Shown here in pieces: positions 1 to 27,506 of a DNA stretch of 64,000 bases. The notes below the pieces were generated by a model. The model worked only from the letters and a program-made list of their open reading frames with translations. It had not been told where the DNA came from and searched no databases. Each line of letters starts with the position of its first letter. Within the stretch, counting starts at the first letter, position 1. A program made the translations under genes and the position numbers. The stretch covers positions 19,850 through 83,849 of the forward strand of contig JBCFAO010000012.1 in the NCBI GenBank assembly GCA_038562165.1, written 5' to 3'. Origin of the DNA: Clostridiales bacterium. Lineage in GTDB: Bacteria > Bacillota > Peptococcia > DRI-13 > UBA5745.

Positions 1-1
1 G

Positions 2-247
2 GCCCTGGGCGAGAAAATCGGCAAGCAGCGGGCTCATGAGGTAGTGTACCAGGTATCCATGGCCACTTTTGAGCAGAAGGCGGACTTTTGTGAGATGTTA
101 TTGCAGGACGAGACGGTTGCCCAGCACATGAGCCGGGAGGAAATTCAGCAAATTCTGAATCCCGAGGGCTATGTAGGCCTGGCCGGCGAGGTTGTGGACG
201 GTGTGGTGAAAAACGTCAAAACAGCCCGGGCCAAGTATGCCTCCTGA
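2..247 (+). CDS. C-terminal fragment of a fumarate-lyase superfamily enzyme (adenylosuccinate lyase / carboxymuconate cycloisomerase-like); 5' end outside window
   Basis: Frame open from nt 2 to the stop at 245-247. Peptide ALGEKIGKQRAHEVVYQVSMATFEQ...LNPEGYVG resembles the C-terminal helical domain of PurB-type lyases (recalled similarity only). Confidence 0.5.
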   Translation, partial: ALGEKIGKQRAHEVVYQVSMATFEQKADFCEMLLQDETVAQHMSREEIQQILNPEGYVGLAGEVVDGVVKNVKTARAKYAS

Positions 248-289
248 TAGATTAGGCTGCGGCAGGCAGCAGAAAGGTCGGAGCTGAAC

Positions 290-1669
290 ATGAATTTCCG
301 CATTGAACATGATACCATGGGCCAGGTTCAGGTTCCCGCAGACAAGTATTGGGGTGCACAGACCCAGCGCAGCCTGGAGAATTTCAAAATTGGCGGCGAG
401 CTGATGCCTGTTGAAATCATCTGCGCCTTTGCCATCTTAAAAAAGGCCGCCGCCTTGGCAAACCTTAAGTTAGGCAACCTGGACGAAAGACGGGCCGCCG
501 CCATTGCCGCCGCCTGCGACGAGATTTACGCCGGCAAGCTAAACGGTCACTTTCCTCTGGTGGTCTGGCAGACGGGCAGCGGCACCCAAACCAACATGAA
601 CGTCAATGAGGTGGTGGCAAACCGCGCCAATGAGCTCTTGGGTGAAACGCTGGTCCATGCCAACGACCACGTCAATAAGTCCCAGAGTTCAAACGACACG
701 TTTCCCACCGCCATGCATATCGCAGCCCTTATGGCCGTGGAGGACAAGGTGCTGCCCGGGCTGGATCTTCTGGAAGGCACCTTGGGAAAGCTGTCCGGGA
801 TGTACAAAGACATTATTAAAATCGGCCGTACCCACCTGCAGGACGCCACTCCCCTGACCCTGGGGCAGGAAATCAGTGGCTGGCGAGAGATGCTGGTGAA
901 GACCCGCAGTATGCTGACCACCTCCTGTGCCGGCTTGAGAGAGCTGGCCCTGGGGGGCACTGCCGTGGGCACCGGCCTAAATGCCTTGCCCGAATTTGGA
1001 AGTTGTGCAGCCCAGGAGATATCCGCTCTTGCAGGCCGGGCTTTTGTGACCGCGCCCAACAAATTTCACAGCCTGACCAGCAAGGACCAGATGGTCTTCG
1101 CTCACGGGGCGATGAAGGCCCTGGCCGCAAACCTGATGAAGATCGCCAACGACGTGCGCCTGCTGTCCAGCGGTCCCCGCTGCGGCATCGGCGAGCTGAT
1201 CATTCCTGAAAACGAGCCCGGCTCCTCCATTATGCCGGGCAAGGTCAATCCCACCCAGTGCGAGGCCATGACCATGGTGGCCGTGCAGGTAATGGGCAAC
1301 GACGCAGCCGTGGGCATAGCGGCCTCCCAAGGCAATTTCGAGCTAAACGTGTTCATGCCTGTGTGCATCTACAATTTCTTGCAGTCGGCCAGACTTCTGG
1401 GAGACGCCATGGTCTCCTTCAACGACAACTGCGCCGTTGGCATCCGTCCCAACGAAGCCAAAATCAAAGAATACCTGGACAGCTCCCTGATGCTGGTCAC
1501 GGCCCTCAACCCCCACATCGGCTATGAAAATGCTGCTAAGATATCCAAGACTGCTTACAGGGAAGATTTGACCCTCAAGGAGGCGGCAGTCAAGCTGGGC
1601 TTGCTGACAGCCGAAGAGTTCGACGAAATCCTGCGGCCGGAGCGCATGGTGGGTCCCATTCAGACATAA
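290..1669 (+). CDS. fumC: Class II fumarate hydratase
   Basis: 459 aa. N-terminus [21 protein letters not shown] and fumarate-lyase signature [17 protein letters not shown]. Length typical of FumC. Confidence 0.9.
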
Positions 1670-1719
1670 GGCTTTTCCGGACCCGGCAGGCCGGCAGAAT
1701 AAAAAGGAGGCATTGGAGC

Positions 1720-2016
1720 ATGGAGCTCAAACTTGCTTTGAAAGTCAACGACAAGGACAACGTAGCCACTATTTTCGCCAACGGCATTACCGACGGCACC
1801 CGGGTAGAAATGCGGGATAAAAAAGGCCGGGCCGAGGAAATGACCGTTCACGGCCAGGTGCCCTACGGTCACAAAATCGCCCTGCAGGATATCAAAAAGG
1901 GGGAGCACATCGTCAAATACGGCGAAAGTATTGGAGCCGCCAGCGCCGATATCCGCAAGGGTGAATACGTCCACGTCCACAATCTGGAGGCCCTGCGGGG
2001 CCGCGGCGATCTCTGA
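1720..2016 (+). CDS. UxaA/GarD-family dehydratase, small SAF-domain subunit (SuyA-like architecture)
   Basis: 98 aa. GHKIALQDIKKGEHIVKYGESIGAA...IRKGEYVHVHN is the typical N-terminal domain of altronate/galactarate dehydratases. GGAGG RBS upstream. Confidence 0.75.
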   Translation: MELKLALKVNDKDNVATIFANGITDGTRVEMRDKKGRAEEMTVHGQVPYGHKIALQDIKKGEHIVKYGESIGAASADIRKGEYVHVHNLEALRGRGDL

Positions 2017-2030
2017 AAGGGGAGCATGCA

Positions 2031-3212
2031 ATGAGTCAATATTCTTTTTACGGATATAAACGTTCCGACGGCAAATACGGCGCCCGCAACCTGGTGGCCG
2101 TCATCCCCAGCGTCATCTGCACCACCGATGTGGCCCAGGCCATTGTCCGCCAGGTCCAGGGCACCGTGGGCTACTTTCATCACCAGGGCTGCTGCCAGCT
2201 GCCTCTCGATCTAAAACGGGTCACCGATACGCTGATCAGCCTGGCCAAAGGCCCCAACGTAGCCGGCGCCTTAATCGTCAGCCTGGGCTGCGAAGGCACC
2301 GATTGCGCCCGCATGGTGGAAGAGATTGCCGCCGCCGGCAAACCCGTGGAAATCATCTATGTACAGGAGCTGGGCGGCACCAGCCGTTCCATCCAGGCCG
2401 GTATCGACCTGGCCCAGAAGATGGTACTGGAGGCTTCAAGCCAGCAGCGGGAGGAAACCGATATCTCCAATCTGATCATGTCCATCAAATGCGGCGCCTC
2501 GGACACCACCTCCGGTATGGCTTCCAATTGCGTCATCGGCTACGTAGCCGACAAGCTGGTGGATCTGGGAGCTACCGTCATCTTCGGCGAAACCACGGAA
2601 TTTTTGGGCGGCGAGCAGATTTTGGCCAACCGGGCCGTAGGCGGACCGGAAGGCCCCGTAGGTCAAAAGATTCTTGAAATCGTCTCCCGTATGGAAAACC
2701 GGGCCAAGGCCACCGGCGAGGACATGCGGGGAGGCCAGCCCACGCCGGGCAATATCGCCGGCGGGCTTTCCAGCATCGAAGAAAAAAGCTTGGGCGCCAT
2801 CGTCAAATCCGGCCACCGCCCCATCCGGGGCGTGCTGGAATATCCCGACTACGTCACCGATCAAAAAGGCTTGTGGATCAAAGACACGCCGGGCCGGGAG
2901 CCGGAAATACTCACCGGCATGGCCGCCGCCGGCGCCCAGGTCATGATGTTTTCTACGGGCCGGGGAGCGCCTCAGGGCTTTCCCAGCATGCCGGTGATCA
3001 AAATCTGCGGCAATCCCAATACCTACGAGCGCATGAAGCACGATATGGATCTGAACGCCGGCCGCATCATCATTGGCGAGAAAAGCATTGAGGAGGTTGG
3101 GGAGGAAGCTTTTGCCCTGCTGTTGAAGGTCCTTAATGGACAATTGACGAAAAACGAGGCCCTTAACTACTTTGCCACCATGGATATCTACTGCCTGGGT
3201 CCGGTGATCTGA
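2031..3212 (+). CDS. UxaA/GarD-family dehydratase, large catalytic subunit (SuyB-like architecture)
   Basis: 393 aa, 14-nt gap after the small subunit. Length and sequence pattern match the C-terminal domain of the altronate/galactarate dehydratase family. Confidence 0.8.
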   Translation: MSQYSFYGYKRSDGKYGARNLVAVIPSVICTTDVAQAIVRQVQGTVGYFHHQGCCQLPLDLKRVTDTLISLAKGPNVAGALIVSLGCEGTDCARMVEEIAAAGKPVEIIYVQELGGTSRSIQAGIDLAQKMVLEASSQQREETDISNLIMSIKCGASDTTSGMASNCVIGYVADKLVDLGATVIFGETTEFLGGEQILANRAVGGPEGPVGQKILEIVSRMENRAKATGEDMRGGQPTPGNIAGGLSSIEEKSLGAIVKSGHRPIRGVLEYPDYVTDQKGLWIKDTPGREPEILTGMAAAGAQVMMFSTGRGAPQGFPSMPVIKICGNPNTYERMKHDMDLNAGRIIIGEKSIEEVGEEAFALLLKVLNGQLTKNEALNYFATMDIYCLGPVI

Positions 3213-3277
3213 GCCGCCGGGCAAAGGAGAGCTCCGGAGGATGGTGAAATCCGATTGCGGACGGAGGAAGAGGCGGC

Positions 3278-4582
3278 ATGCATAGCAAAAAAACCGGGGT
3301 GGTCATTCCCATTGGTACGCAGCTCCATAGCATACAGGTCCCGAACCTCATCGGCGTCGCCGATCCGGCCTATGTGCCGGGAGTGGCGGATAAACGGGCG
3401 GAAATTGCCCGGGCGCTGGTTCAGCCCATTGGCAGCCGGAGGTTGAGGCAAATTGCCCGGGGCCGCAAGACGGCGGCCATCGTCATCAACGATATTACTA
3501 GACCCTATCCCGGCGGGCTGATGGTGGAAGAGTTGGCCCGGGAGCTAAACGCAGCGGGTATTGCCGACGAGTTTATCTCTCTGGTAGTGGCCTATGGGCA
3601 TCACCGTCCCAACACGCTTCAGGAGCTGGCTGCGCAGTACGGTCAGGCGGTAATCGGAAGATTTTCCATTGTGCACCACGCCGCCGGGGACCCCGGACAA
3701 AACGTGACCCTGGGTTTTACCAAAGGCGGTGTGGAGGTCTCCGTCAACCGCAAATTTGCCGAGGCCGGCGTAAAGGTGCTCACCGGCTGCATTACCCCTC
3801 ACCAGTTCGCCGGGTTCTCCGGCGGGCGCAAAAGCGTGGTTCCCGGTATCGCAGGTCTTTCTGCCATTAAACGGCATCATTCTTTTCCTATCCGGCCCGA
3901 GGCTATTTCCCTGGGCCTGCTGGAGGGCAACCGTTTCCACACTGAGTCCCTGGAGGCGGCCCGCCTGGCCGGGGTGGATTTCATCGTGAATGCGGTGGAA
4001 AACACCGGCCGGGAACTGGTACGGTGTGTTGCCGGTGACTTGGAGGAGGCCTATTTGGCGGGGGTAGAGGTCAGCCGCAGGATCTGGACGGTGCCCATTC
4101 CTCGGCAGCCGGACATCGTTATCGTTAGTCCCGGCGGATTTCCCCGGGATCTGGACCTGCATCAGTCGCAAAAAGCCCTGGGCTGCGCTGAGATGGTCTG
4201 TCCCCCGGGAGGAGGCATTATCCTGTGTGCCCACTGTCCCGACGGGGCAGGGAAACCCGGCAAGCTGCTGCGGGAGGCCCGCAGCCTGGATGAGGTTATA
4301 AACCGGTTTCTGACCCGGGGCTTTGAGCCCGACGGCAACGGCAAGGCCTACATGTTGGCCCGGGCAGCGGCAAAATACCGCATTATCCTGGCAGGGAGCG
4401 CCATCCCTCAGGCCGACCTGCGCACCATGTTTCTGGACGGTTACGATACCGTAGAGGAGGCCATAGAAGTGATGCTGAAGCAATACGGCCCGGCGGCGCA
4501 TATCTTGGCGGTTCCCAACGCCTCCGAAATTATCCCTGTGCTGCGGAGAGCCGCTGAAAAAGTGGGTGAAACTACGCTGTGA
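3278..4582 (+). CDS. LarA-family nickel-pincer (NPN) dependent 2-hydroxyacid racemase/epimerase homologue
   Basis: 434 aa. LarA hallmark segments NDITRP, YGHHRP (catalytic His), PHQFAGFSGGRKSVVPG (catalytic His plus cofactor-tethering Lys) and KRHHS (Ni-ligand His region). Confidence 0.8.
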   Translation: MHSKKTGVVIPIGTQLHSIQVPNLIGVADPAYVPGVADKRAEIARALVQPIGSRRLRQIARGRKTAAIVINDITRPYPGGLMVEELARELNAAGIADEFISLVVAYGHHRPNTLQELAAQYGQAVIGRFSIVHHAAGDPGQNVTLGFTKGGVEVSVNRKFAEAGVKVLTGCITPHQFAGFSGGRKSVVPGIAGLSAIKRHHSFPIRPEAISLGLLEGNRFHTESLEAARLAGVDFIVNAVENTGRELVRCVAGDLEEAYLAGVEVSRRIWTVPIPRQPDIVIVSPGGFPRDLDLHQSQKALGCAEMVCPPGGGIILCAHCPDGAGKPGKLLREARSLDEVINRFLTRGFEPDGNGKAYMLARAAAKYRIILAGSAIPQADLRTMFLDGYDTVEEAIEVMLKQYGPAAHILAVPNASEIIPVLRRAAEKVGETTL

Positions 4583-5658
4583 CTGCTTTGCGGCTCCTCA
4601 TTACCCTTGCCGCCGGCTGCATCGGCGGCTCCCTGGCCCTAAAGGCCAAAATGCCGGCGGGAGCGCTGGTAGGAGCCATGGTCTTTGCTGCCGCCTGGAA
4701 TCTTTTTACCAATACCGCCTATATCCCTTGGTATTTTAAGCCTTGTGCCCAGTCGGTGGCGGGGGCCTTCATCGCCTTGCCCCTGACCCGGGCCCAGGTA
4801 AAAAACCTCCGGGGGCTGCTGAAACCGGCTGCCATCGTCGTGGCCGGCATGCTGCTGTTTTCCATCGGCTCCGGCTACCTGTGCCGCAGCTCCACTGCCG
4901 GGCAGGTAACGCTGATCAGCGGTTTTCTGATGAGCTCGCCCGGAGGCATGACGGATATTGTACTCATGGCCGGCGACTTGGGGGCCGATACGCTGCAGGT
5001 TTCTGTGGTGCACCTGATTCGTAATTTCACCAATCTTTTGCTGTTTCCCTTGTTGGACGGCCTCTGCCTGAGACTGCTGATCCGGAGAAAACCGGAGGTG
5101 TTTGCAGCCCGGTGCGGGGAAGCAAGCGGCGAATATTACGGCGCCGTCCACAGCTTTGATTGGATGAATCTTTTTCTTTCTCTTGCCCTGGCCCTGGCCT
5201 GCGGCTGGCTGGGCTATTTCACCGGACTGCCGGCAGGGGCGTTGCTGTTTTCTTTGGTAGGCTTTGCCGCCTTCAACATTACCACCCAGCGGGGATGCAT
5301 CCCCATTTCCCTGCGCCGGTTTACCCAGATGTGTACCGGCACGCTGGTGGGCAGCGCCATCACCCGGGAAAGTTTAGCCGGCCTACGCCATCTGATTTTT
5401 CCTATTTTAATTGTGGTGCTGGTCAATCTGGTGATGAACTGGACCCTGGGCGCCATTCTTTATTTCTACACGCCCCTTGATCTGCATACCAGTTTCATCG
5501 CCACCATTCCGGGGGCGGCGGCGGATATGGCCATGATCGCCGAGGATCTGGACGGCGACGGATTGAAGGTCGCACTGATTCAAATTATCCGCTTTATCAG
5601 CGTGGTCATGATCTACCCCCAGGTCTACAGGCTTCTGGCCGCCCTGAGCGCGGCATAG
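4579..5658 (+). CDS. AbrB-duplication family integral membrane protein (putative transporter)
   Basis: 359 aa, polytopic with two similar halves. GTG start overlaps the larA-like stop (GTGA). Family assignment from recall of the 'membrane protein AbrB duplication' type. Confidence 0.55.
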   Translation: MTALRLLITLAAGCIGGSLALKAKMPAGALVGAMVFAAAWNLFTNTAYIPWYFKPCAQSVAGAFIALPLTRAQVKNLRGLLKPAAIVVAGMLLFSIGSGYLCRSSTAGQVTLISGFLMSSPGGMTDIVLMAGDLGADTLQVSVVHLIRNFTNLLLFPLLDGLCLRLLIRRKPEVFAARCGEASGEYYGAVHSFDWMNLFLSLALALACGWLGYFTGLPAGALLFSLVGFAAFNITTQRGCIPISLRRFTQMCTGTLVGSAITRESLAGLRHLIFPILIVVLVNLVMNWTLGAILYFYTPLDLHTSFIATIPGAAADMAMIAEDLDGDGLKVALIQIIRFISVVMIYPQVYRLLAALSAA

Positions 5659-5686
5659 ACTCAACGCAGAATGGAGTGAACCGGCT

Positions 5687-6970
5687 TTGCATGACAAAAA
5701 CGAAAAAGTAAACGCCCTGCTCTTCAATGAAAAGATTCCCCGAATGGTCACGATCCGGCAGAAATTCGAGTCCGCCCATATCGAGGATCCGGCGGCGGTG
5801 CTCCGGGCCAGCTTTCAGCGGCCTGAGCTGCAGGATATCGTGAAACCCGGCATGACGGTGGCGGTGACGGCAGGCAGCCGGGGCATAGACAACATCGCCC
5901 TCATCATCCGGGAGACCGTGCAGTTTATCCGGGAAAAGGGCGGGTTTCCCTTTATTGTGCCTGCCATGGGCAGCCATGGCGGCGCTGTGGCGGAGGGGCA
6001 GACAGCCCTTTTAAGGAATTTCGGCATCACCGAGGAGGTTATGGGGTGTCCCGTCCGCTCATCCATGGAAGTAGACCTATTGGATACTCTGGAAGATGGG
6101 ACGCCGGTCTACATCGACCGGTATGCTCACCAGGCCGGCGGCATTGTGGTGATCAACCGCATCAAGCCCCATACCGGCTTCCGCGGCCGCTACGAGAGCG
6201 GCCTGTTCAAGATGATGGCGGTGGGGCTGGGCAAGCAGCAGGGGGCCGAAACCGTCCATAACCGGGGCCGCAAACGGATGGGAGAGACCATTGAGCTATG
6301 CGGCAATGCCTATCTGAGCAAAGCGAATATTCTCTTCGGCGTGGCCGCCGTTGAAAATGCCTTTGACCGCACCTTCTTCCTGTCGGCCATGACAAAGGAA
6401 GAAATCGCCCTGCAGGAGCCCAGGTATCTGGCGGAGGCCCGCCGGCTGTTGCCCAGCCTGCTGCTGGAGCATCTGGACGTGCTGGTGGTGGACTACATGG
6501 GCAAGAACATCAGCGGCGCCGGCATGGATACCAACATCACCAAATCCTATGCTCACGGCTATGGTATCAGCCGGGAGGGACGGGCCAGAAAAATCGCCGT
6601 TTTAGACCTAACGGTCGAAAGCCACGGGGCGGCAGTGGGCGTGGGTTCAGCGGACGTGACCACCCGCAGGCTCTTTGAGAAGATGGATTTCAACACGACC
6701 TACCCCAACCTGTTGACCAGCGGCGGCACCGATTCGGCTAAAATCCCCATGGTGCTGGATAATCACAGGCTGGCTATTCAGGCCGCCATCAAGACGGCCC
6801 TAGGCGCCGATAAGGAGCGTATCCGTATGGTGAGAATCCGGGATACCCTGCACATCAGCGAGATTCAAATTTCCGAGGCGCTGCTGGAAGAAGCCAAAAG
6901 CCATCCCGCCATTGAAATTGTGGGAGAGCCGCAAGAGCTGGCCTTCGATGAGGAGGGCAATTTATTTTAA
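5687..6970 (+). CDS. Divergent LarA_N / DUF2088 domain protein (LarA paralogue lacking the GGRK lysine motif)
   Basis: 427 aa. Region NRIKPHTGFRGRYESGLFK aligns by eye to LarA ESHFFAGFSGGRKSVLPG, with His kept and Lys replaced. TTG start with GGAG 11 nt upstream; start uncertain. Confidence 0.55.
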   Translation: MHDKNEKVNALLFNEKIPRMVTIRQKFESAHIEDPAAVLRASFQRPELQDIVKPGMTVAVTAGSRGIDNIALIIRETVQFIREKGGFPFIVPAMGSHGGAVAEGQTALLRNFGITEEVMGCPVRSSMEVDLLDTLEDGTPVYIDRYAHQAGGIVVINRIKPHTGFRGRYESGLFKMMAVGLGKQQGAETVHNRGRKRMGETIELCGNAYLSKANILFGVAAVENAFDRTFFLSAMTKEEIALQEPRYLAEARRLLPSLLLEHLDVLVVDYMGKNISGAGMDTNITKSYAHGYGISREGRARKIAVLDLTVESHGAAVGVGSADVTTRRLFEKMDFNTTYPNLLTSGGTDSAKIPMVLDNHRLAIQAAIKTALGADKERIRMVRIRDTLHISEIQISEALLEEAKSHPAIEIVGEPQELAFDEEGNLF

Positions 6971-7345
6971 GTCTTGTCTGACGTTTTAAATAGAGCAAAA
7001 AGAGAGCAAAGAAAAAGGGCTTGTCTCGATGAAGAGGCAGTCTTTTTTTATGTATTACCATGCAAAATAATTTATAAATAAAAATTTCCAAACAATTTCT
7101 TAATTCTTAAAATTATCTTTTATCAGACGAAAGGTCTGGCAGGAAATTGAAAGTTGAAGTGGAATTTAAAGTGAATTGAGTTAAAAATTACTTAGTCATG
7201 AATTCAGGCAGACTTAGGATAAGGTGCCGCTTACATTAGAGCTATGGATAATGATATAGATATTCTTCCGCAAGGTAGTGAAAGGAGGGGCGCAGAGACT
7301 TTCCGGCATCGCCAAATCGTTGGCAGTTAAAAAAGGAGGGATACC

Positions 7346-8698
7346 ATGATTATCGTTATCATTCCATTTATTGTTTTACTGGCTATTATTTTAATTCCTA
7401 AGATTCCTCTTGTTGGCGGCAATATACAAGCCGGTCTGCTGATTACGGGTTTAGTGGCTCTTTTGATGGGAGGAGTCATAAATCCGGTTGATTGGGGTCT
7501 GGCCTGGATTGACGGCGTAGACCGGATTGCCTGGGTTATTTGCTTGTCGGTATTCGGCAGCGTCTATGCTGAAACTCAGGTGGAAATGGGTACAATGGAT
7601 ACCGTAATCAATTCCTTGCGGGCCTTGTTCGGACATTCGCCTAAAGGGCTGATCATTTCCGTTATGATCGCCTTGACCATTGCCGGTTCTTTATTGGGTG
7701 ACGCTATTGCCGCTTCCACCGTTATCGGTGTTCTGGTCATCAAATCCTTAGCGGAGATGAATTTAACAGGCGAGCAGATTTCCGCCACTATCGTTATGGG
7801 CGCAAGCCTTGGTTCTATCATGCCGCCGATCACCCAAGCCATATTTCTGGCTGCCGGCTTGGTAGGCATTGAACCCGATCCCGTAGTTAACATTGGTTAT
7901 TTTACCGTCGGTGTCGGTGTCATTCTTTGTTCTATTTATGTGGCGAATATGTTTATCAAAATTAAATCCCTGCCGGAAGACTTGATTCCCAAGGAGACGG
8001 CCGGTCAGATCGTCAGGAAAAATTGGCCTACGCTGGTTCCTTTGTTTATCCTGATCCTTCTGGTAGTTTTGCGGACCGGCTTCAAGATTGACGTGATCAC
8101 CATGGTTATGGGCGGCTTTATTGATATCATTAAGACCATTCCGATCATCAAAGGCTTCTCCAACCTGATTGTTCTCAGCATCATTATCGTCATGGTCATC
8201 AGTTTCTTTTTTCCCAGGGTGCGCAGCCAGTTGGGCACCGTCGTTGGCCGGGGCTTAGTTAATGTAAAGACCAGCTTCACGGTGCAGGTCAGCGCCGGTC
8301 TGATGCTGGGTGCTTTCTACAAAGCCGGCCAGATCGAAGCTGTAAAAACCTTTGCCTTAGCTCTCAACCAGAACCTGCTGAAGCTGGGCGGCAGCGCCGC
8401 TCTTTGCTTGCTCGGTATGCTCACCGGTTCTCAGACCACCGCCCAAAACGCCATTTTCTCTTTCTTTGGCCCCGCCTTGATTGAGATCGGCCTGGATCCG
8501 GTGAATGTAGCCGTAGCCGGCGCCCATTTGGCTATGTCTGGCCAGGGCCTGCCTCCTGCCGACCTGACTACCTTTGTGGTGGCCGGCCTGGTTGGCGGTA
8601 TTTTGGGTATTAAGGTTGACCCCGTAAAATCCATGTTTTATTCTGCCGTAATGTGCATTTATTTCTTGATTGTGGGCATTGTATTCCTTTATATCTAA
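7346..8698 (+). CDS. Polytopic permease (ion-transporter superfamily, DctM/CitM/GntP-like)
   Basis: 450 aa, highly hydrophobic. Strong RBS AAAGGAGGG. Visibly lower GC than its neighbours. Subfamily not resolvable by eye. Confidence 0.55.
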   Translation: MIIVIIPFIVLLAIILIPKIPLVGGNIQAGLLITGLVALLMGGVINPVDWGLAWIDGVDRIAWVICLSVFGSVYAETQVEMGTMDTVINSLRALFGHSPKGLIISVMIALTIAGSLLGDAIAASTVIGVLVIKSLAEMNLTGEQISATIVMGASLGSIMPPITQAIFLAAGLVGIEPDPVVNIGYFTVGVGVILCSIYVANMFIKIKSLPEDLIPKETAGQIVRKNWPTLVPLFILILLVVLRTGFKIDVITMVMGGFIDIIKTIPIIKGFSNLIVLSIIIVMVISFFFPRVRSQLGTVVGRGLVNVKTSFTVQVSAGLMLGAFYKAGQIEAVKTFALALNQNLLKLGGSAALCLLGMLTGSQTTAQNAIFSFFGPALIEIGLDPVNVAVAGAHLAMSGQGLPPADLTTFVVAGLVGGILGIKVDPVKSMFYSAVMCIYFLIVGIVFLYI

Positions 8699-8874
8699 AA
8701 CCGAAGCTTTAAGAAAAATAGGGAAGAATACAAAAAAATACAAACCAGGGGCTGTCACAAATTTTGGTCTTTCAAAAAGCCAATTTTTGCGGCAGCCCCT
8801 TTGTCAACATTGGACCGGCCTCCTGCATATAATGATCATTATATCTATGCGTTATAAGATGGGAGTGGAGCGGC

Positions 8875-10020
8875 ATGGAGACTATATATTTAGATAACGG
8901 AGCCACCAGCTTTCCCAAGGCCCCGGGTTTAGGCCAAGCTATGGCGGATTATTTGGATAACAATGGCGTTAATATCAACAGAGGCAGCTATCAGGCCGCC
9001 GCCTCCGCCGCCAATGGGGTGCTGGAGACAAGGGAGCTTTTGGGCGAGCTTTTTCATTATAGAAAGGAGTCCCACATTATTTTTTCTGCCGGGGTTACCC
9101 AAAGCCTTAATTTGATCATCAAGGGGCTCCTGAAACCGGGAGACCACTGTATTGTCAGCTCTATGGAGCATAACGGCGTAATGCGGCCCCTGGTGCAGAT
9201 GGCAGCCAAGGGAGTAACCTTTGACCGGGTGCCTTGCGACCGCCGGGGACGGCTGGTGCTCACCGGACTGGAGGAGCTTTTCCGGCCCAATACGAAGCTG
9301 GTGGTGATGCTGCATGCTTCCAATGTCTGCGGTACCCTGATGCCGATAGCCAAAGTAGCCAAGATCTGCCGGGAAAAAGCCGTGCCCTTTGTGCTGGACG
9401 CCGCTCAGACAGCAGGCCACATTGACATCAACATGGAAGAATTAGGCTTGGCCGCTCTTTGTTTCCCCGGCCATAAAGGGCTGATGGGCCCCGGCGGCAT
9501 CGGCGGCATGATTGTTGCGCCGTCTTTGGCGGCGGAGCTGGAGCCCTTAGTGGCAGGAGGCACCGGCAGCCATTCCGAATCCGAGGAAATGCCGCCAGAA
9601 CTGCCGGAGCGCTTTGAAGCCGGTACCATGAATATTGCCGGCATCTTTGGTCTGCGCCATAGCCTGCAATTCATTAAGAACCAGTCTCTGGAGGCCATTC
9701 ATCATAAGGAAATGATACTTACCGCCTGTTTCCTTGACGGCGTCAAAAGAATGGATAGTATCCGGATCGTAGGGGAGCCGGGTATGGCTAACCGGATGGC
9801 CGTAGTCTCCCTGGATTTTCTAAACCGGGATAATAGCGAAGTCGCCTTTCAACTGGCGGAGCAATACGGCATTATGACCCGCAGCGGGCTGCAATGCGCT
9901 CCATCGGCTCATAAGTCCCTGGGCACCTTCCCCCAGGGTACGGTGCGCTTTTCCTTTAGCTATTTCAATACGGAGGAGCAAATCGACAAAGCGGTGGAGG
10001 CAGTGAGGGCTCTGGCTTAA
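8875..10020 (+). CDS. Class V aminotransferase / cysteine desulfurase-selenocysteine lyase family (short N-terminus, EF2568-like subfamily)
   Basis: 381 aa. IYLDNGATSFPK N-terminus, SSMEHNG, PLP-lysine region FPGHKGLMGPGG. Confidence 0.85.
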   Translation: METIYLDNGATSFPKAPGLGQAMADYLDNNGVNINRGSYQAAASAANGVLETRELLGELFHYRKESHIIFSAGVTQSLNLIIKGLLKPGDHCIVSSMEHNGVMRPLVQMAAKGVTFDRVPCDRRGRLVLTGLEELFRPNTKLVVMLHASNVCGTLMPIAKVAKICREKAVPFVLDAAQTAGHIDINMEELGLAALCFPGHKGLMGPGGIGGMIVAPSLAAELEPLVAGGTGSHSESEEMPPELPERFEAGTMNIAGIFGLRHSLQFIKNQSLEAIHHKEMILTACFLDGVKRMDSIRIVGEPGMANRMAVVSLDFLNRDNSEVAFQLAEQYGIMTRSGLQCAPSAHKSLGTFPQGTVRFSFSYFNTEEQIDKAVEAVRALA

Positions 10021-10028
10021 GCATAGAC

Positions 10029-10107
10029 AAAGAGCATGAATAAACAGAAAGAGAAAGAAGGCCTTTGATTGAGGCCTTTCTCCCAATAGTTTATGCATGC
10101 TCTTTTT
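10029..10107. terminator. Nested double hairpin between convergent genes (bidirectional terminator)
   Basis: Outer stem CAAAGAGCATGAATAAAC / GTTTATgCATGCTCTTT enclosing inner stem AAGGCCT-ttgattg-AGGCCTT. T-run follows on the + strand. Confidence 0.6.
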
Positions 10108-10120
10108 AAATTCAGGGGCC

Positions 10121-10528
10121 CTAGGCCAGCATAAATGAGAATTCCCCTTGGGCGCAGAGCTTGTCTCCGACGTAAACCTTGCCTTCCGCAAAGTAAAAGG
10201 GCTTCCTTGCTTTCGTAATCCGGCAGTGGCAGCGGACCCGGTCCCCCGGCTTTACGGGCTGGCGGAAGCGGACGTTGTTGAGGCTGGTATAATACGTCTC
10301 GGCGGCCTTTTCTTCTGCCAGGCAAACGGCACAGGATTGGGCCATCATTTCGCAGAGAATAACGCCGGGCACCACCGGATTGCCAGGGAAATGACCCTGG
10401 AGAAAAAACTCGTCGCCCCGGACGTCGTAATAAGCGGTGGCACTGCCGTCTTCATTAAGATAGGCTTCCTCCACCAAAAGCATAGGCTCCCGGTGGGGCA
10501 ATATGGCTTTGATTTCTTCTTTATTCAT
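10121..10528 (-). CDS. fabZ: 3-hydroxyacyl-ACP dehydratase
   Basis: LPHREPMLLVEE and GHFPGNPVVPGV motifs. Start moved to the ATG at 10528, 9 nt after AAGGAG (the ORF track starts at 10558). Confidence 0.9.
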   Translation of the reverse strand: MNKEEIKAILPHREPMLLVEEAYLNEDGSATAYYDVRGDEFFLQGHFPGNPVVPGVILCEMMAQSCAVCLAEEKAAETYYTSLNNVRFRQPVKPGDRVRCHCRITKARKPFYFAEGKVYVGDKLCAQGEFSFMLA

Positions 10529-12550: not shown

Positions 12551-13531
12551 TTATCTGGAACCTCCGTTGTTTTCCGGCAGGCCTTCGGCTTTCCCCATGC
12601 CGGCGTCGTTGCCGTTGCCGGCCCTATCGCTAAGTGCGGCCAGGGTTTGCTCCAGGCTGGCCTTATCCTCCACATTCAGGGTGCCGGCCTGAGGCAGGAT
12701 TTTATTGACCAGCCCGCAAAGGGTTTTGCCGGCCCCCAACTCCACGAAAGTGTCTACCCCCTGGGAGGCCAGATATTCGATGGAGGACTGCCAATAAAGG
12801 GGACTGTTGATTTGCCGGAAAAGCAGGTCTTTACCGGTATAGGGCCGGCCGCTGACGTTGGCGATTACCGGGATGGCGGCGGAAGCAAAGGCCAAACCGG
12901 CAAACTCCGCGGCCAAAGTTTCGGCGGCCTGATCCATAAAAGGTGAGTGGAAGCCGCCGCTGACGGCCAGTTTCAGGGCTTTGCCGCCGGCAGCTTTGAC
13001 TGCCGCCTGAAAAGGAGCGGCGGAATCAGCCTGGCAGGCTACCACCGTTTGATTGGCGCTGTTGTAATTGGCGGGATAGCAGCGGGCCAAGGCGCCGGCG
13101 ATTTCTTCGATGGCCGGGGCGGCCAGGCCCATAACGGCAAACATGGCGCTGCCGCTTTCCCGGGAGCATTGTTCCATCAGCTCTCCCCGGCGGCAGACGA
13201 AGCGGAAAGCCTCTTCATCGGTCAGGCTGCCGGCAAAGGCTAAGGCGGGAATCTCCCCCAGGGAAAAGCCGGCGATATAATCGGGCCCGATGCCTGCCCC
13301 TTCCAAGGTCCGGGCTGCTGCCAGGCCAACGCAAAACAAGGCGGGCTGAGTCACGCTGGTAACGGTCAGCTCTTCTTTGGAGGCGGCAAAGCATTGTTCC
13401 GAGGTGCCGGGGCGGATAGCGTCGGCCATAGCAAAAACAGTCCGGGCCTCCGGTGATACTTCCCACAATTCTTTGCCCATGCCGGTGTATTGGGCTCCCT
13501 GGCCGGCAAAAAGGAAAGCTATTTTACCCAT
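12551..13531 (-). CDS. fabD: Malonyl-CoA:ACP transacylase
   Basis: FLFAGQGAQYTGMG and GFSLGE nucleophile motif. About 25-aa low-complexity C-terminal tail. Confidence 0.92.
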   Translation of the reverse strand: MGKIAFLFAGQGAQYTGMGKELWEVSPEARTVFAMADAIRPGTSEQCFAASKEELTVTSVTQPALFCVGLAAARTLEGAGIGPDYIAGFSLGEIPALAFAGSLTDEEAFRFVCRRGELMEQCSRESGSAMFAVMGLAAPAIEEIAGALARCYPANYNSANQTVVACQADSAAPFQAAVKAAGGKALKLAVSGGFHSPFMDQAAETLAAEFAGLAFASAAIPVIANVSGRPYTGKDLLFRQINSPLYWQSSIEYLASQGVDTFVELGAGKTLCGLVNKILPQAGTLNVEDKASLEQTLAALSDRAGNGNDAGMGKAEGLPENNGGSR

Positions 13532-14463
13532 GCCGCGGCCTCCTTGAATTTTACTGCGGCTTCGGCAAATAATTCTTCAATGATTTCTTTAGCGGTTTGT
13601 TCTTTATTGACCAGGCCGCTGACCTGGCCGGCCATGAAGCAGCCGTTTTTTTCGTCTCCTTCTTTGACGGCCCGGCGCAGGGCTCCGGCTCCGAAAGCTT
13701 CCAGCTCTTCCAAAGACATCTCGTTTTGCATTTCGTTTTTCAGAAATTGATGGGTAAAAGGAGATTTAAGAGCCCGGACAGGATGGCCCAGCCGCCGGCC
13801 GGTGGTCATGGTGGCGATATCGCCCGCTGCCAGAACCTTCTTTTTATAATTTTCGTGGATAGTGCATTCTTTGGCTACCAAAAATCTGGTGCCCAACTGG
13901 ACGCCGCAGGCTCCCAGCATAAAGGCTGCCGCTACTCCCCGGCCGTCGCCGATGCCGCCGGCGGCAATGACCGGCAATTGTACTGCATCGCAGACTTGAG
14001 GCACCAGGGCCATCGTATTCAAATCGCCGATATGGCCGCCGGATTCACCGCCTTCGGCAATAACGGCCGCCGCCCCGGCCCGTTGGACCAGTTTGGCCAC
14101 GCCGGTGGAAGGGACCACGGGAATTACCTTGATTCCGGCAGCCAGCCAGGCTTTCATATATTTGGTGGGCAGACCGGCTCCCGTGGTCACTACCGGTACT
14201 TTTTCTTCGGCCACTAAGGTGGCAATGTCCTCCACAAAAGGGCTCATCAGCATGAGGTTGACGCCAAAGGGCTTATTGGTACGGGCCCGGGTTTGCCGAA
14301 TCTGCTCCCGGACATAGTCTGCCGGAGCGGAACCGGCGGAGATAATGCCTAAGCCGCCGGCTTCGGATACGGCGGAAGCCAGGCTGTAATCAGAAACCCA
14401 GGCCATACCGCCCTGAAAAATCGGGTATTGGATGCCTAACAGGTCGCATAAAATCGTTTTCAT
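13519..14463 (-). CDS. fabK: Enoyl-ACP reductase II (FMN, nitronate monooxygenase fold)
   Basis: 314 aa. LGIQYPIFQGGMAWVS N-terminus. Position between acpP and fabD as in FabK-type clusters. Confidence 0.85.
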   Translation of the reverse strand: MKTILCDLLGIQYPIFQGGMAWVSDYSLASAVSEAGGLGIISAGSAPADYVREQIRQTRARTNKPFGVNLMLMSPFVEDIATLVAEEKVPVVTTGAGLPTKYMKAWLAAGIKVIPVVPSTGVAKLVQRAGAAAVIAEGGESGGHIGDLNTMALVPQVCDAVQLPVIAAGGIGDGRGVAAAFMLGACGVQLGTRFLVAKECTIHENYKKKVLAAGDIATMTTGRRLGHPVRALKSPFTHQFLKNEMQNEMSLEELEAFGAGALRRAVKEGDEKNGCFMAGQVSGLVNKEQTAKEIIEELFAEAAVKFKEAAAWVK

Positions 14464-14503
14464 CTTAATACGGAATCCTCCAAATCCATGTGTTATATAA
14501 GGC

Positions 14504-14544
14504 CTAGTGCTTTGTGTCGGCTAAAACTTGTCACAGAGTACTGG
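14504..14544. repeat. Single copy of the GTGAC-hairpin repeat family (family B)
   Basis: CTAGTGCTTTGTGTCGGCTAAAACTTGTCACAGAGTACTGG. Self-complementary, and similar to the copies at 36655-36727 and 46075-46238. Confidence 0.6.
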
Positions 14545-14594
14545 TTAAAGAAGCAGGCTCTCCTTGGGTTTGGAAAGCCTGCTGAAGGGATTGA

Positions 14595-14816
14595 TTAAGC
14601 AGTCAGACTGTTGATGAGAGAGACCAAATCTCCTACTGTTTGCAGGGTTTCGTCAGCCTCGATGGTGATACCGAACTCTTCTTCGAAGGCCATAATCAGC
14701 TCCACCGTATCCAGGGAGTCAAAGCCCAGAGATTCCAACGTAGATTCGGCAGTAATGGCGGCAGGATCTAATTCCTTTTTTTCAGCGATAAGGTTAGTTA
14801 CTTTTTCTAATGTCAT
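14595..14816 (-). CDS. acpP: Acyl carrier protein
   Basis: 73 aa. LGFDSLDTVELIM phosphopantetheine-attachment motif. Confidence 0.93.
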   Translation of the reverse strand: MTLEKVTNLIAEKKELDPAAITAESTLESLGFDSLDTVELIMAFEEEFGITIEADETLQTVGDLVSLINSLTA

Positions 14817-14893
14817 TGTGGTTCCTCCTCGATTTTAATGAGAGTTTTAAAGTAAATTCGGTCAGGCTGCCAGAGTTTTAAAATAAAGACCGG

Positions 14894-15850
14894 CTAGAGC
14901 TTTATTATGCAGGCCCCGGTAGTAAAACCGCCGCCGAAAGCCGACAAAACGATAATGTCTCCCCTTTGGATTTTACCCTGCCGCCACAGATCATCCAGCA
15001 AAAGGGGAATGCTGGCGGAAGAGGTATTGCCATAATGTTGGATACCGATGGCTGTTTGTTCCTCGGTGAAGCCCAAAAGCTTGGCGGCGCTTTGAATGAT
15101 CCGGATATTGGCCTGATGGGGGATCACCATTTTGACCTGGGCCGGCGTAAGACCCGCCTGAGCCAAAGCTTTTTTAACATCCTTAACCATGGCGCCTACG
15201 GCAAACTTAAATACCTTGCGGCCGGACATGCTAAGAACATTGGGCCGGTGGGGCAATTGGCTGAAGGGATTGATATTGTTGAACCCGGGAATCAATAGGG
15301 CCTGCTCTGTATCGCTTTGGGCTGTCAGCACCCTGGCCAGGAGGCCATCGCCTTTTTGCAGCACTACAGCTCCGGCACCGTCGCCAAAAAGAACGCAGGT
15401 GGAGCGGTGATTCCAGTCCAGATGCTTCGACATCATTTCGCAAGCCACCACCAGCACCTTATCTGCCCGGCCGCTGTCCAGATAAGCAGCCGCCACATCC
15501 AAAGCATAAATGAAGCCGGTACAGGCTGCATTGAGATCAAAGGCGGGGCAATGGGCGCCGATTTCCTGCTGCACCATGCAGGCTAAGGAGGGGGTGACAT
15601 TGTCTCCCTGCAAAGTAGCGCATATGATCAGATCCAAATCAGCCGCTGCTATGCCGGCATTGGCCAAGGCCTGGTTAGAGGCGGTGGCAGTGAGTTCCAG
15701 ACCGGTTTCCGTGGTGGCGATAAACCGGGTTTTAATGCCGCTGCGGCTGGTGATCCATTCGTCATTAGTGTCCACTATGGTGGAAAGCTGGTCGTTGGTT
15801 AAAGAAAATTGCGGATGGGCTTTGCCCGTTCCCATAATTTGAAAGCTCAT
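14894..15850 (-). CDS. fabH: 3-oxoacyl-ACP synthase III
   Basis: 318 aa. DLNAACTGF (Cys), PHQANIRI (His), GNTSSAS (Asn). Confidence 0.92.
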   Translation of the reverse strand: MSFQIMGTGKAHPQFSLTNDQLSTIVDTNDEWITSRSGIKTRFIATTETGLELTATASNQALANAGIAAADLDLIICATLQGDNVTPSLACMVQQEIGAHCPAFDLNAACTGFIYALDVAAAYLDSGRADKVLVVACEMMSKHLDWNHRSTCVLFGDGAGAVVLQKGDGLLARVLTAQSDTEQALLIPGFNNINPFSQLPHRPNVLSMSGRKVFKFAVGAMVKDVKKALAQAGLTPAQVKMVIPHQANIRIIQSAAKLLGFTEEQTAIGIQHYGNTSSASIPLLLDDLWRQGKIQRGDIIVLSAFGGGFTTGACIIKL

Positions 15851-16315
15851 TTATTTCTCCAATTTTATAGCGTTTTTTTCAAAGTATTGATTTAACCGCA
15901 AAACGCCGTTATAAAAAACTTGTTTTTCTTCTTCGCTCATATCCTTTGTAATGGTGTTGACCATTTTCCGGTGGAAGAAATGATGAAGCCGATAGACCCG
16001 CTTACCCGCCTTCGTCAGGGAAATATAAACTGACCGGCCGTCGGAGGGATTTTTTTCTTTGAGCAAAAAATTTTTGGCCACCAGCTTATTTACGGCGATA
16101 GTTACCGAGGCCAGAGTAATGTTGAGGGCGGAAGCAATATCACTGATCGTCGCCGTTTCCCGGCGGCCGATGGCATCGATGAGATGGACTTCGCTGATGG
16201 AAGCATCAATATTGTTATCCCGCAGGTTTGCTTCCTCGATCTTCAAGATGTATTCAAAAGTCTCGGTCAGCAAATCGCTCAATTGGTCTTTGAAATCGGC
16301 CAAGTCTAAAGGCAC
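15851..16315 (-). CDS. fabT: MarR-family regulator at the head of the fab cluster (FabT-like)
   Basis: 154 aa winged-helix MarR pattern, directly abutting fabH. GTG start, exact start uncertain. Confidence 0.7.
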   Translation of the reverse strand: MPLDLADFKDQLSDLLTETFEYILKIEEANLRDNNIDASISEVHLIDAIGRRETATISDIASALNITLASVTIAVNKLVAKNFLLKEKNPSDGRSVYISLTKAGKRVYRLHHFFHRKMVNTITKDMSEEEKQVFYNGVLRLNQYFEKNAIKLEK

Positions 16316-16327
16316 CTCCCCTCAATT

Positions 16328-16348
16328 AATTAGTTAGACTATCTAATT
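16328..16348. promoter_or_regulatory. 21-bp palindrome upstream of fabT (candidate FabT operator)
   Basis: AATTAGtTAGaCTAtCTAATT, 18 of 21 positions self-complementary, 13 nt upstream of the fabT start. Confidence 0.4.
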
Positions 16349-16394
16349 ATATAGCGGTGGAGGAAAATGTCAATAGGAATATTGTAAACATTGC

Positions 16395-16612
16395 TGACTG
16401 CACAAAAATGCAGGTTTGTAACCTGGCGCGCCCTCAGATGAGCAAAATTGCAGGTTTGTATCTGCTTAAAAATGTTGAAAGACGGGTTTTTCGCTGTATT
16501 TAGGGCCAGAGGCGAAATGGAACCACTAAACTTAAAGGAATGATACGCTACAAACTTGAAATTTTGCTCAAAATGGTTCCGCTATCACTGACAAACCTGC
16601 AAGGTTTGCACA
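16395..16612. repeat. Family A modular inverted-repeat element, copy 1
   Basis: Core CAAAAWTGCAGGTTTGT at 16403 and 16443 (+). Inverted cores ACAAACYTG.A..TTTG at 16550 and 16591. 40-41 bp module spacing. Confidence 0.75.
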
Positions 16613-16837
16613 AAGTTGACTCGCAACAGACCGACTACACCGTCCAGCCATCAAAAAAGAAGGCTGCCCCAAAATGAAATGGTCCCCATGTCAAGGACAA
16701 TTTTAAAAAGAGGCCTATAAAAATCTCTGTAGAACTGATTAAATGGGTTTTACGGAGGAGATATGCAAGCAAATGCTGGCAGCAATATCAACTTCGATAG
16801 AACTGCCAGCATTTAATATATCCGCATATCTATTAGT

Positions 16838-17044
16838 ATGATGAACGCTATTGTAAAAGGATTTCCCATGGCAAAGCAAAACGACAAAAAGGAATACGAA
16901 CAATTAGAGGACTTTTTCGAGCAGCTCCGCAGTGATTATTGGTCGGTAAGGGGCACTCTGGATGAAGCGAACAAAAAAATAGAGTTCTTGGAATCACTCT
17001 GCCGTATCTATGGTATCTCTATTCCAGAAGAAATGCCGTTCTGA
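16838..17044 (+). CDS. Small hypothetical ORF whose stop codon is supplied by the IS terminus (probably truncated)
   Basis: 68 aa, no recognisable family. Its TGA (17042-17044) is the first three bases of the putative IS inverted repeat TGATCT. Confidence 0.3.
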   Translation: MMNAIVKGFPMAKQNDKKEYEQLEDFFEQLRSDYWSVRGTLDEANKKIEFLESLCRIYGISIPEEMPF

Positions 17045-17045
17045 T

Positions 17046-25105: not shown

Positions 25106-25118
25106 GTGTATCAACTCC

Positions 25119-27469: not shown

Positions 27470-27506
27470 TTGCGCATCCCTCCCAATTGATTTCATTCGC
27501 AAAGTA

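Follow-up and report, generated by a model that had tools for sequence, protein, structure and literature searches.

LarA-superfamily proteins recurrently adjoin a two-subunit UxaA-type lyase, here at the end of a 13-gene operon of a Clostridiales bacterium

LarA inverts the C2 centre of its substrate using nickel-pincer nucleotide (NPN) as its cofactor, by an established mechanism in which a hydride passes to the pincer cofactor and is re-added on the other face. In group 5 of the published LarA tree, the group of Mar1 from Desulfitobacterium hafniense, a COG2721 (UxaA) gene flanks each member, and TctC/TctA a quarter of them (PMC7583248); the 100% association with UxaA was left unexplained (Desguin 2020, PMC7583248 Table S1), and the same authors doubted that malate is the native substrate of Mar1. 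In the UxaA/GarD lyase family, the chemistry of GarD and UxaA themselves takes a 2,3-dihydroxy acid to a 2-oxo-3-deoxy acid. The two-subunit sulfolactate sulfo-lyase SuyAB needs an inversion at C2 before its alpha,beta-elimination to pyruvate, since sulfolactate derived from sulfoquinovose is (S) and SuyAB is (R)-specific, and the published pathway pairs SuyAB with a tripartite tricarboxylate transporter (TTT) (PMC10507020; PMC11193023). Here we examine a locus at the start of a 64,000-nucleotide stretch of DNA from a Clostridiales bacterium (contig JBCFAO010000012.1, positions 19,850 to 83,849; hereafter, the window), in which two LarA-superfamily genes stand beside a split UxaA/GarD-family lyase. 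A sequence-only reading of window 1720-6970 had proposed that a LarA racemase or epimerase works with the lyase, and that no pathway coupling the two had been described. A literature search for a pathway with LarA+UxaA or LarA+aconitase, for one on hydroxycitrate, or for a LarA-type sulfolactate racemase indeed turned up nothing beyond the group 5 association, which is already in print. The pairing survives as a repeated, independent adjacency, but its emphasis moves, because the 434-aa LarA gene that was named is absent from strains 99.2-99.4% identical and a second LarA protein, of group 22, is the recurrent partner. Judging from sequence, we lean slightly toward a model in which C2-inverting LarA enzymes feed a stereospecific UxaA/SuyAB-type elimination within a polycarboxylate operon.

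The genes of the block are all present as that reading listed them, with the quoted motifs and the GTGA overlap where it put them, by the open reading frame (ORF) list and domain scans. The lyase is encoded on the plus strand by a 98-aa SAF-domain small subunit (1720..2016) and a 393-aa large, catalytic subunit with GD_AH_second and GD_AH_C domains (2031..3212). Jointly, the two ORFs cover positions 2-502 of the 507-position GarD model, with the SAF ORF matching the N-terminal positions 2-79 of the galactarate dehydratase model, and the domains of the UxaA/GarD family are all there. The galactarate dehydratase equivalog is not reached (TIGR03248, 54 + 222 bits, cutoff 731), and the only Protein Data Bank (PDB) relative of the large subunit is GarD 6u7l, at 182 bits. 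The window lyase has the same three domains as GarD and UxaA, and differs from GarD in being two polypeptides and in having no KdgD, KGSADH, KdgK or KdgA nearby, unlike the GarD-like loci of Pseudosulfitobacter and Paracoccus. In the comparison to SuyAB with SlcC/ComC and SlcHFG, small and large UxaA-family subunits are shared (98 + 393 aa; SuyB-type about 42 kDa), as is a TTT transporter in the cluster, and the same need for inversion at C2 is proposed for the window lyase. It differs in that no dehydrogenase pair and no sulfite exporter or reductase is seen, and the inversion would be of the nickel-pincer type. The layout is thus the one that the first description of the block had called SuyAB architecture, but it is not diagnostic, because split UxaA genes occur in sugar-acid clusters as well.

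With E ≤ 1e-20 as the threshold, the large subunit matches 7097 proteins, and among the 120 best listed the identity is nearly always 80-89%, with one match at 99% and one at 75%. Sampling covered six distinct genomic contexts of 81%-identical UxaAB copies, in which the small subunits are 64-82% identical to that of the window (L-numbers here are our handles for contigs and loci). A LarA gene lies immediately 5' of SAF-UxaA in four of the six: L050/L068, with MR_MLE, shikimate dehydrogenase, DHQase, TctCBA and cupin genes; L054/L058, with a sigma-54 activator, a pyridoxal phosphate (PLP) enzyme and GntR; L066, which is like L054 with the addition of TctCBA and a second SAF-UxaA, beside conjugation genes; and L056, with GntR, MR_MLE and a LarC fragment. 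The LarA partners in these four form a lactate-racemase-like clade, 44-48% identical to a group-1 LarA of Clostridium acetobutylicum and 32-34% to the 434-aa protein of the window, and carry PHFFAGFSGGRKS and EQWCAQI. In the other two contexts (L052, L060), SAF-UxaA stands alone, with no aldolase or kinase nearby. That suggests a product which is itself a central 2-oxo acid (pyruvate, oxaloacetate, 2-oxoglutarate), and short substrates would therefore be indicated: tartrate, glycerate, sulfolactate, hydroxycitrate.

At L066:500-5800 and 12885-17179, genes for a type IV secretion system coupling protein, ArdA and ParB adjoin the LarA-SAF-UxaA cassette, followed by TctCBA and the second SAF-UxaA. 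PLP enzymes like CuyA and D-cysteine desulfhydrase lie beside SAF-UxaA at L054:9243-10304 and L066:9204-10262 (about 281 bits to NF052482, cutoff 450), and two PatB-family C-S lyases do so in L052:3000-5733. The MR_MLE genes near other UxaAB copies were considered as D-tartrate dehydratases, and this was not confirmed, their best structures being uncharacterised structural-genomics targets.

At greater distance, plasmid pSPTER of Sporomusa termitida has the order MR_MLE-TctCBA-LarA (group 22)-SAF-UxaA, with a GntR gene on the opposite strand, and its large subunit is 52% identical to that of the window. Pseudosulfitobacter plasmids encode a full-length GarD-like protein (38.3% to the large subunit), a group-22-like LarA and larC, surrounded by araD, a DHDPS-family gene and an NADP aldehyde dehydrogenase of the aldarate/pentonate type. 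A split UxaA in a deoxy-sugar cluster of Ponticoccus is at 39.8%. A Variovorax sp. SRS16 plasmid (L153:6527-11288) has GntR, a 2-hydroxyacid dehydrogenase, a split UxaA annotated only as "UxaA family hydrolase", a TTT binding protein and an Ldh_2 oxidoreductase, which is the layout of the published SlcC/ComC/SuyAB/SlcH sulfolactate cluster; its large subunit, SuyB-like by context, is 40.6% identical. The neighbourhood check that had been proposed for LarA and UxaA thus finds four LarA lineages directly beside UxaA-family genes, namely group 5, the lactate-racemase-like clade, group 22 and the window's own clade. The adjacency is repeated and independent, in Clostridia, Negativicutes and Alphaproteobacteria, and Tct transporters recur beside UxaAB.

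The more constant LarA partner of UxaA is the 427-aa protein encoded at 5687..6970 on the plus strand. It had been labelled a divergent DUF2088 protein, a label to be replaced, as it scores 516 bits against the curated model for LarA group 22 (NF052515, cutoff 400). R65, H97, H162, K175 and H191 are invariant in its alignment with published members of that group. It is 46% identical to the LarA directly 5' of SAF-UxaA on pSPTER and 41% to the LarA between the GarD-like gene and larC on the Pseudosulfitobacter plasmids. The published context of group 22 consists of SDR, IlvD/Edd-type dehydratase, TRAP and kinase genes, with UxaA not named (PMC7583248 Table S1), so the window protein fits the group and differs from its published setting by a UxaA/GarD-family neighbour. 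When the group-22 alignment was used for a metagenome scan, counting 53 loci of at least 6 kb, 13 (about 25%) had a UxaA/GarD-family gene, mostly directly adjacent, and 7 had larC. We judge that frequency to be far above chance for a family with few copies per genome. We regard group 22 as the stable partner because it persists with UxaAB where the other LarA gene is deleted and recurs beside UxaA elsewhere.

That other gene, at 3278..4582 on the plus strand, encodes the 434-aa LarA homologue (LarAH), a 2-hydroxyacid racemase/epimerase homologue of an unclassified clade with Lar_N and LarA_C domains. Membership in the superfamily is clear (PF09861, 189 bits; PF21113, 60 bits). GHHRP is found at residues 107-111 and PHQFAGFSGGRKS at 174-186, and the catalytic and cofactor residues align with those of solved LarA and Mar2 structures (His108/His174, the cofactor-tethering Lys184, the Ni-binding His200, and Arg75/Asp72 in Lactiplantibacillus plantarum numbering). 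The catalytic His pair and tethering Lys, which had been reported as retained, are indeed invariant in 26 relatives (H109, H175, K185), as are D72, R75, H201, Q296, K299, K356 and M359, and position 362 is always R or K. LarAH falls below every NCBIfam cutoff: 380 bits against 500 for the LarAH6 malate racemase (NF052593), 330 against 462 for LarAH5 (NF052595), and 302 against 460 for LarA (NF033504). A lactate racemase proper, group 1, is excluded by that last score and by a pocket with Q176/F177/Y358 instead of F175/F176/W358. Membership in the curated malate racemases was likewise rejected, with both cutoffs missed, the Lys of the motif kept, and its His/Gln replaced by Gly355.

Placement in the published 25-group tree was approximated by pairwise comparison with sequences from that paper's dataset. 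Among sequences that carry a published group label, Tepidanaerobacter TepiRe1_2442, of group 5, is nearest, at 41%, and identity to Mar1 is 34%. The nearest solved structures are the broad-spectrum Isosphaera LarA, at 238 bits, and Mar2, at 217 bits. The pocket of LarAH has Q176-F177 and G353-N-G-K356-A-Y-M-L-A-R362, in which K356 aligns with the Lys of the "HK" pair of Mar2, thought to bind the second carboxylate of malate (PMC11770544). LarAH shares with group 5 the Q-F pair after the second catalytic His, a K-A-Y/F motif and Arg362, the Arg/Lys at that position being conserved in the LarAH clade as it is in group 5; it differs in its low identity to Mar1, the missed LarAH5 cutoff, Gly355 in place of His/Asn, and a wider clade context of PrpD-like and aconitase genes. 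The extra Arg/Lys362 and the Gly that replaces His/Gln suggest a substrate larger or more anionic than malate, such as a tricarboxylate or a substituted dicarboxylate. Residues 177, 353-355 and 360 differ between LarAH subclades (at least 62% identity versus 52-61%), which may therefore not share one substrate.

LarAH is also a strain-variable gene. A 1363-bp segment at window 3217..4579, made up of the intergenic spacer and larAH to the start codon of the next gene, abrB, is missing in L004 and L005, contigs from two other samples whose flanks are 99.4% and 99.2% identical in nucleotide sequence to L003, a contig matching the window. The junction is TGAGCCGTGACTGC, in which GCC separates the UxaA stop codon from the GTG start of abrB. 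These strains retain uxaAB, the group-22 gene and fumC. All more distant orthologues have larAH, and its absence is for that reason read as a recent deletion. The next-nearest LarAH relative is only 76% identical, as against the many 80-89% homologues of the large subunit.

The block, first described as a module, is not self-contained and is instead the 3' part of a LysR-associated 13-gene operon that runs from two aconitases to the group-22 LarA. The cluster is extended upstream by L001 and L003, which carry identical proteins (L003 at 100% nucleotide identity to the window over 11.7 kb), and L063 supplies the region still further upstream. Its complete gene order is LysR and then, past a 222-bp gap, aconitase (648 aa), a second aconitase (665 aa), TctC, TctB, TctA, a PrpD/MmgE-family protein, a fumarate-lyase-family gene, fumC, SAF, UxaA, LarAH, AbrB and group-22 LarA, and upstream of this there is an unrelated Mo-hydroxylase/amidohydrolase cluster. 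The window start cuts the fumarate-lyase-superfamily gene, leaving its 3' end at 44..247 (+) with an ADSL_C domain, so the gene of this superfamily that had been described as preceding the block is there; in full it has 456 aa, lies at L003:8588-9958, and belongs to the CMLE/Tad1/CreD subgroup. The class II fumarate hydratase fumC is genuine (TIGR00979, 748 bits, cutoff 664.75), but at 290..1669 (+) it lies outside the 1720-6970 block to which it had been assigned. AbrB (4579..5658, +) is a membrane protein of the AbrB-duplication type and a putative transporter (PF05145; TIGR03082 in two stretches), and its start overlaps the stop of larAH as GTGA at 4579-4582. Spacing between genes of the block runs from -4 to 65 bp, with Shine-Dalgarno (SD)-like sequences before most starts.

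Terminator-like hairpins at 6941-6958 and 7021-7040 (+), each with a T-rich tail after it and recognized by pattern match only, mark the probable end of the operon. A permease does follow the block, as had been said, at 7346..8698 (+; 450 aa; weak DctM and DcuC similarity, below cutoffs). It is probably a separate unit, set off by a 375-bp gap after 6970 that holds such hairpins, with its own SD sequence, and it is missing from orthologous loci. GC falls from about 0.58 to 0.43-0.50 over window 6971-8700, which, with the absence from orthologous clusters, suggests that the permease was acquired separately. An Rfam search of 1-10300 found no riboswitch or other RNA element.

The arrangement is conserved well beyond this species. 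A one-genome-per-species scan with the LarAH alignment gave 43 loci, and synteny in related loci was read from tblastn maps, greedy longest-ORF calling having picked antisense ORFs where the loci were GC-rich. SAF-UxaA-LarAH-Lar22 is contiguous in 7 genome loci and 1 metagenome locus of gut and rumen Clostridia, with proteins 66-88% identical, and on that account is not a chance arrangement. All 7 loci with 66-71% identical LarAH keep TctCBA-PrpD-like-lyase-(FumC)-SAF-UxaA-LarAH-Lar22; they come from an Angelakisella metagenome-assembled genome (MAG), sheep-rumen and other Clostridia MAGs, and a Hadza gut MAG. A 10-kb stretch of metagenome contig L072 has the lyase-FumC-SAF-UxaA-LarAH-Lar22 portion. 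FumC in the orthologous clusters is 62-80% identical and its gene varies in position, before SAF or after Lar22, and the AbrB gene and permease are confined, among orthologous operons, to the window's species. A 31% AbrB homologue comes after tctA in a LarAH/PrpD/Tct cluster of a Tissierella MAG (L036). The rumen orthologues have an Ldh_2-family dehydrogenase between tctA and the PrpD-like gene (L009:4626-5681; also L008, L011, L032), for which the best NCBIfam model is L-sulfolactate dehydrogenase at 226 bits, cutoff 500. A distant Ldh_2 gene is found in the window at 62365-63438.

As for the upstream enzymes, both aconitases reach the NCBIfam aconitate hydratase equivalog. The PrpD-family protein has as its best structures the B. 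subtilis IRG1 homologue at 140 bits, iminodisuccinate (IDS) epimerase at 122 and cis-aconitate decarboxylase at 64; a true 2-methylcitrate dehydratase was rejected for it, at 33 bits versus 140 for IRG1-like structures. The fumarate-lyase-family protein scores best with 3c8t (315 bits), followed by the trans-aconitate decarboxylase Tad1 (286), CMLE (275) and adenylosuccinate lyase (220). It has a catalytic Arg of the Tad1 type (HERDGALWKIEW) and an SS loop GSSTMPHKRN (Tad1 comparison: PMC11880804), and with that Arg and the higher scores to the Tad1/CMLE/CreD subgroup, a housekeeping purB is excluded. Against the NCBIfam XcbD model it reaches 471 bits, below the cutoff of 600.

The run of a PrpD-family protein like IRG1 and IDS epimerase, a Tad1/CMLE-type lyase and a fumarase presumably echoes the iminodisuccinate pathway (IDS epimerase, C-N lyase and fumarase) and the itaconate enzymes IRG1/CAD and Tad1. 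The likeness is at the family level only, at 140 and 286 bits.

In the model we lean toward, which builds on the gene content, catalytic-residue conservation, operon structure and LarA-UxaA recurrence described above, the operon would take up plant-type hydroxy or unsaturated polycarboxylic acids and convert them in a redox-neutral way. Import would be through the TctCBA tripartite transporter, and perhaps through the AbrB-type protein too. SAF and UxaA would form a two-subunit lyase of the GarD/UxaA/SuyAB family that removes the proton at C2 of a 2-hydroxy acid with loss of a leaving group at C3, to give a 2-oxo acid that could enter central metabolism directly. The lyase would be stereospecific, and NPN-dependent inversion at C2 would come from the group-22 LarA as the constant partner and from LarAH as a strain-variable extra, while fumarase, the aconitases, the IRG1/IDS-epimerase-like protein and the Tad1/CMLE-type lyase would process unsaturated and tertiary-alcohol members of the same pool. 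Adjacency would then translate into substrate channelling, a direction of flux and a chemistry. Hints of a hydroxy-polycarboxylate are the Tct transporters, the malate-racemase-like pocket of LarAH with group 5 as its nearest labelled relative, the sugar-acid contexts of group 22, and fumC; characterised malate racemases epimerise tartrate weakly (PMC11770544). A hydroxyl as leaving group, from tartrate, hydroxycitrate-type or aldarate-type acids, is our tentative choice, held at clearly less than even confidence. A sulfonate or thiolate, from an acid of the sulfolactate type, we see as a minority prospect, and a larger share than either goes to other leaving groups and substrates. A more specific proposal is that the widespread Clostridial SAF+UxaA and its LarA partners make up an undescribed two-step "invert then eliminate" route by which all stereoisomers of one abundant dietary acid would reach a central 2-oxo acid directly, either with a nickel-pincer epimerase of the tartrate/hydroxycitrate/isocitrate type and a new dehydratase for tartrate or a hydroxy-tricarboxylate, or, for the first time, with a sulfolactate racemase of LarA type that supplies a SuyAB-like sulfo-lyase in gut Firmicutes that are not sulfidogenic. 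We consider it possible but doubtful.

Several observations weigh against the model. UxaA is found in 0/20 of the loci with 51-61% identical LarAH, from Syntrophobacterales, Desulfuromusa, Synergistaceae, Desulfovibrionaceae, Mediterraneibacter and others; the same 20 have a PrpD-like gene in 16, an aconitase-family gene in 17 and Tct in 9, and therefore the deep association of the LarAH clade is with tricarboxylate-type enzymes. Further conserved neighbours there are D-2-hydroxyacid dehydrogenases, an RraA-like aldolase, a PrpF-family protein and a protein of the isocitrate/isopropylmalate dehydrogenase family. The deletion in L004 and L005 shows that larAH is dispensable to the remainder of the operon; with this and the 0/20 count, its connection with the lyase could be incidental. 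The LarA partners of near-identical UxaAB differ sharply in their pockets (FF..W-C versus QF..GK..R), which is awkward for one substrate, and relatives of the large subunit that can be interpreted functionally reach only 38-41% identity. The roles of the aconitases and of the IRG1-like and Tad1-like proteins are not accounted for by a single substrate. Finally, larB, larC and larE are not found in the 64-kb window, by hidden Markov model (HMM) scans of plausible genes of at least 180 aa, of intergenic gaps over 250 bp and by motif search, nor in 10 kb upstream, so that the earlier statement to this effect holds for the window. The sole LarB/LarC/LarE motif match, SGGTDS inside the group-22 protein, is coincidental. 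Related loci in other genomes do carry larC.

One alternative is that the locus handles organosulfonates or C-S bonds. SAF+UxaA would be a SuyAB-type (R)-sulfolactate sulfo-lyase, or a lyase for a thio-analogue, yielding pyruvate and sulfite, with a LarA homologue as a one-enzyme sulfolactate racemase that replaces SlcC/ComC, TctCBA as an importer of the SlcHFG type, and the XcbD-like lyase and FumC acting on intermediates of a sulfoacrylate or succino-cysteine type. The two-subunit architecture, the published combination of a TTT transporter with SuyAB and a required inversion, and the split UxaA of the Variovorax cluster would all fit, as would the CuyA-like and PatB-family enzymes that adjoin 81%-identical UxaAB and the lactate-racemase-like pocket of the LarA partners of those copies, which suits a C3 acid. 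The XcbD score of the upstream lyase, the IRG1 homologue nearest to the PrpD-like protein and the sulfolactate dehydrogenase model of the rumen Ldh_2 can be read in the same direction, but every match to a sulfonate-related model is under its curated cutoff. The large subunit is no nearer to the SuyB-like Variovorax protein than to UxaA of sugar-acid type (38-40%), the contexts of group 22 are those of sugar acids, both in PMC7583248 Table S1 and in the loci here, and the aconitases and a bona fide fumarase would be left unaccounted for. Pattern and family searches of the window and related loci, which were not exhaustive, found no sulfite exporter (TauE/SuyZ), sulfite reductase, HpsN or Xsc, and none of the annotated window genes gives a sulfonate context (sulfolactate dehydrogenases, sulfite exporter or reductase). 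We consider this alternative unlikely.

With plainer C4 chemistry, LarAH would be a simple malate racemase, or a tartrate epimerase, that supplies L-malate or a single isomer of tartrate to FumC or UxaAB, and the remaining operon would be unrelated citrate/aconitate metabolism. Its two best NCBIfam models are malate-racemase families, Lys356 aligns with the Mar2 Lys, known malate racemases epimerise tartrate, and fumC is conserved in the cluster. In a Desulfovibrionaceae MAG (L020:2609-9488), a Dcu C4-dicarboxylate carrier, two aspartase-like genes and a glycerate kinase are followed by a 55%-identical LarAH, which is the sort of setting this alternative would expect. Yet LarAH is well under both malate-racemase cutoffs, the motif has Gly for His/Gln together with a conserved Arg362, malate has no leaving group at C3 for a UxaA-type lyase, the deep partners of the LarAH clade are PrpD-like, aconitase-family and Tct genes, and larAH is missing from close strains that keep fumC and uxaAB; we hold it to be quite unlikely. 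It could also be that there is no substrate channelling between LarA and UxaAB at all, with catabolic cassettes simply piling up in a LysR-controlled locus. UxaAB is indeed a mobile cassette, highly conserved, that turns up in many unrelated settings and in one case next to conjugation genes, fumC moves about, AbrB and the permease are species-specific, and larAH is a clean presence/absence polymorphism. Against such a mosaic stand the adjacency with four LarA lineages in three phyla, UxaA in a quarter of the group-22 loci, and coding sequences that overlap or lie 14-65 bp apart, which make it improbable.

The enzyme families were already known, as was the LarA-UxaA association, from a supplementary table of 2020 in which it is unexplained. 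New here are the extent of the operon, the adjacency across multiple lineages, group 22 as the stable partner, the larAH deletion polymorphism, and the very high conservation of Clostridial UxaAB. Group 22 is without known function, and the discoverers of Mar1 doubt its native substrate. Few "UxaA family hydrolases" of gut Clostridia are as conserved as the window's split UxaA, which has no assigned reaction. The locus is a testable lead to physiological substrates, which would be the first, for two LarA groups and for this very common gut enzyme. The recurrence, and an operon with a tricarboxylate transporter, narrow the search to a short panel of purchasable substrates, and Sporomusa termitida DSM 4440, with pSPTER, and Desulfitobacterium hafniense are culturable test organisms. 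Either version of the "invert then eliminate" route, if true, would give the first physiological substrate for LarA group 22 and for group-5-like enzymes, and a nickel-pincer tartrate epimerase would provide a gene for an orphan tartrate epimerase activity. A tartrate or hydroxy-acid substrate would bear on the use of plant organic acids by gut and rumen bacteria, and a sulfonate on the sulfite and H2S that arise from dietary sulfoquinovose.

Just downstream of the lar genes, 8875-10020 encodes a cysteine desulfurase-family protein (TIGR01977, 437 bits, cutoff 377; SclA model, 394, cutoff 525), and a link to sulfur supply for NPN synthesis is speculative. An IS3-family transposase (NF033516, 256 bits, cutoff 160) lies at 17046-17891 (-), and directly upstream of it a 162-aa ORF at 17927-18415 (-) may be OrfA. 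Window 20141-41405, on the minus strand, has a PrpB-like lyase (21595-22464), a MutL-like protein, a PrpF-like isomerase (23954-25114), a B12-binding mutase (25119-26963), aconitase-family small and large subunits (26978-28703), a Mo-hydroxylase (30387-32630) with its FAD subunit, a HIBADH-like dehydrogenase, an AA_synth protein, a ferredoxin-domain protein, an amidohydrolase and a sigma-54 activator, a gene set that we take to be a nicotinate fermentation cluster of the Eubacterium barkeri type. Between a PTS-EIIC-like gene and the Mo-hydroxylase there is a perfect 45-bp tandem repeat of 3.6 copies, at 30050-30210.

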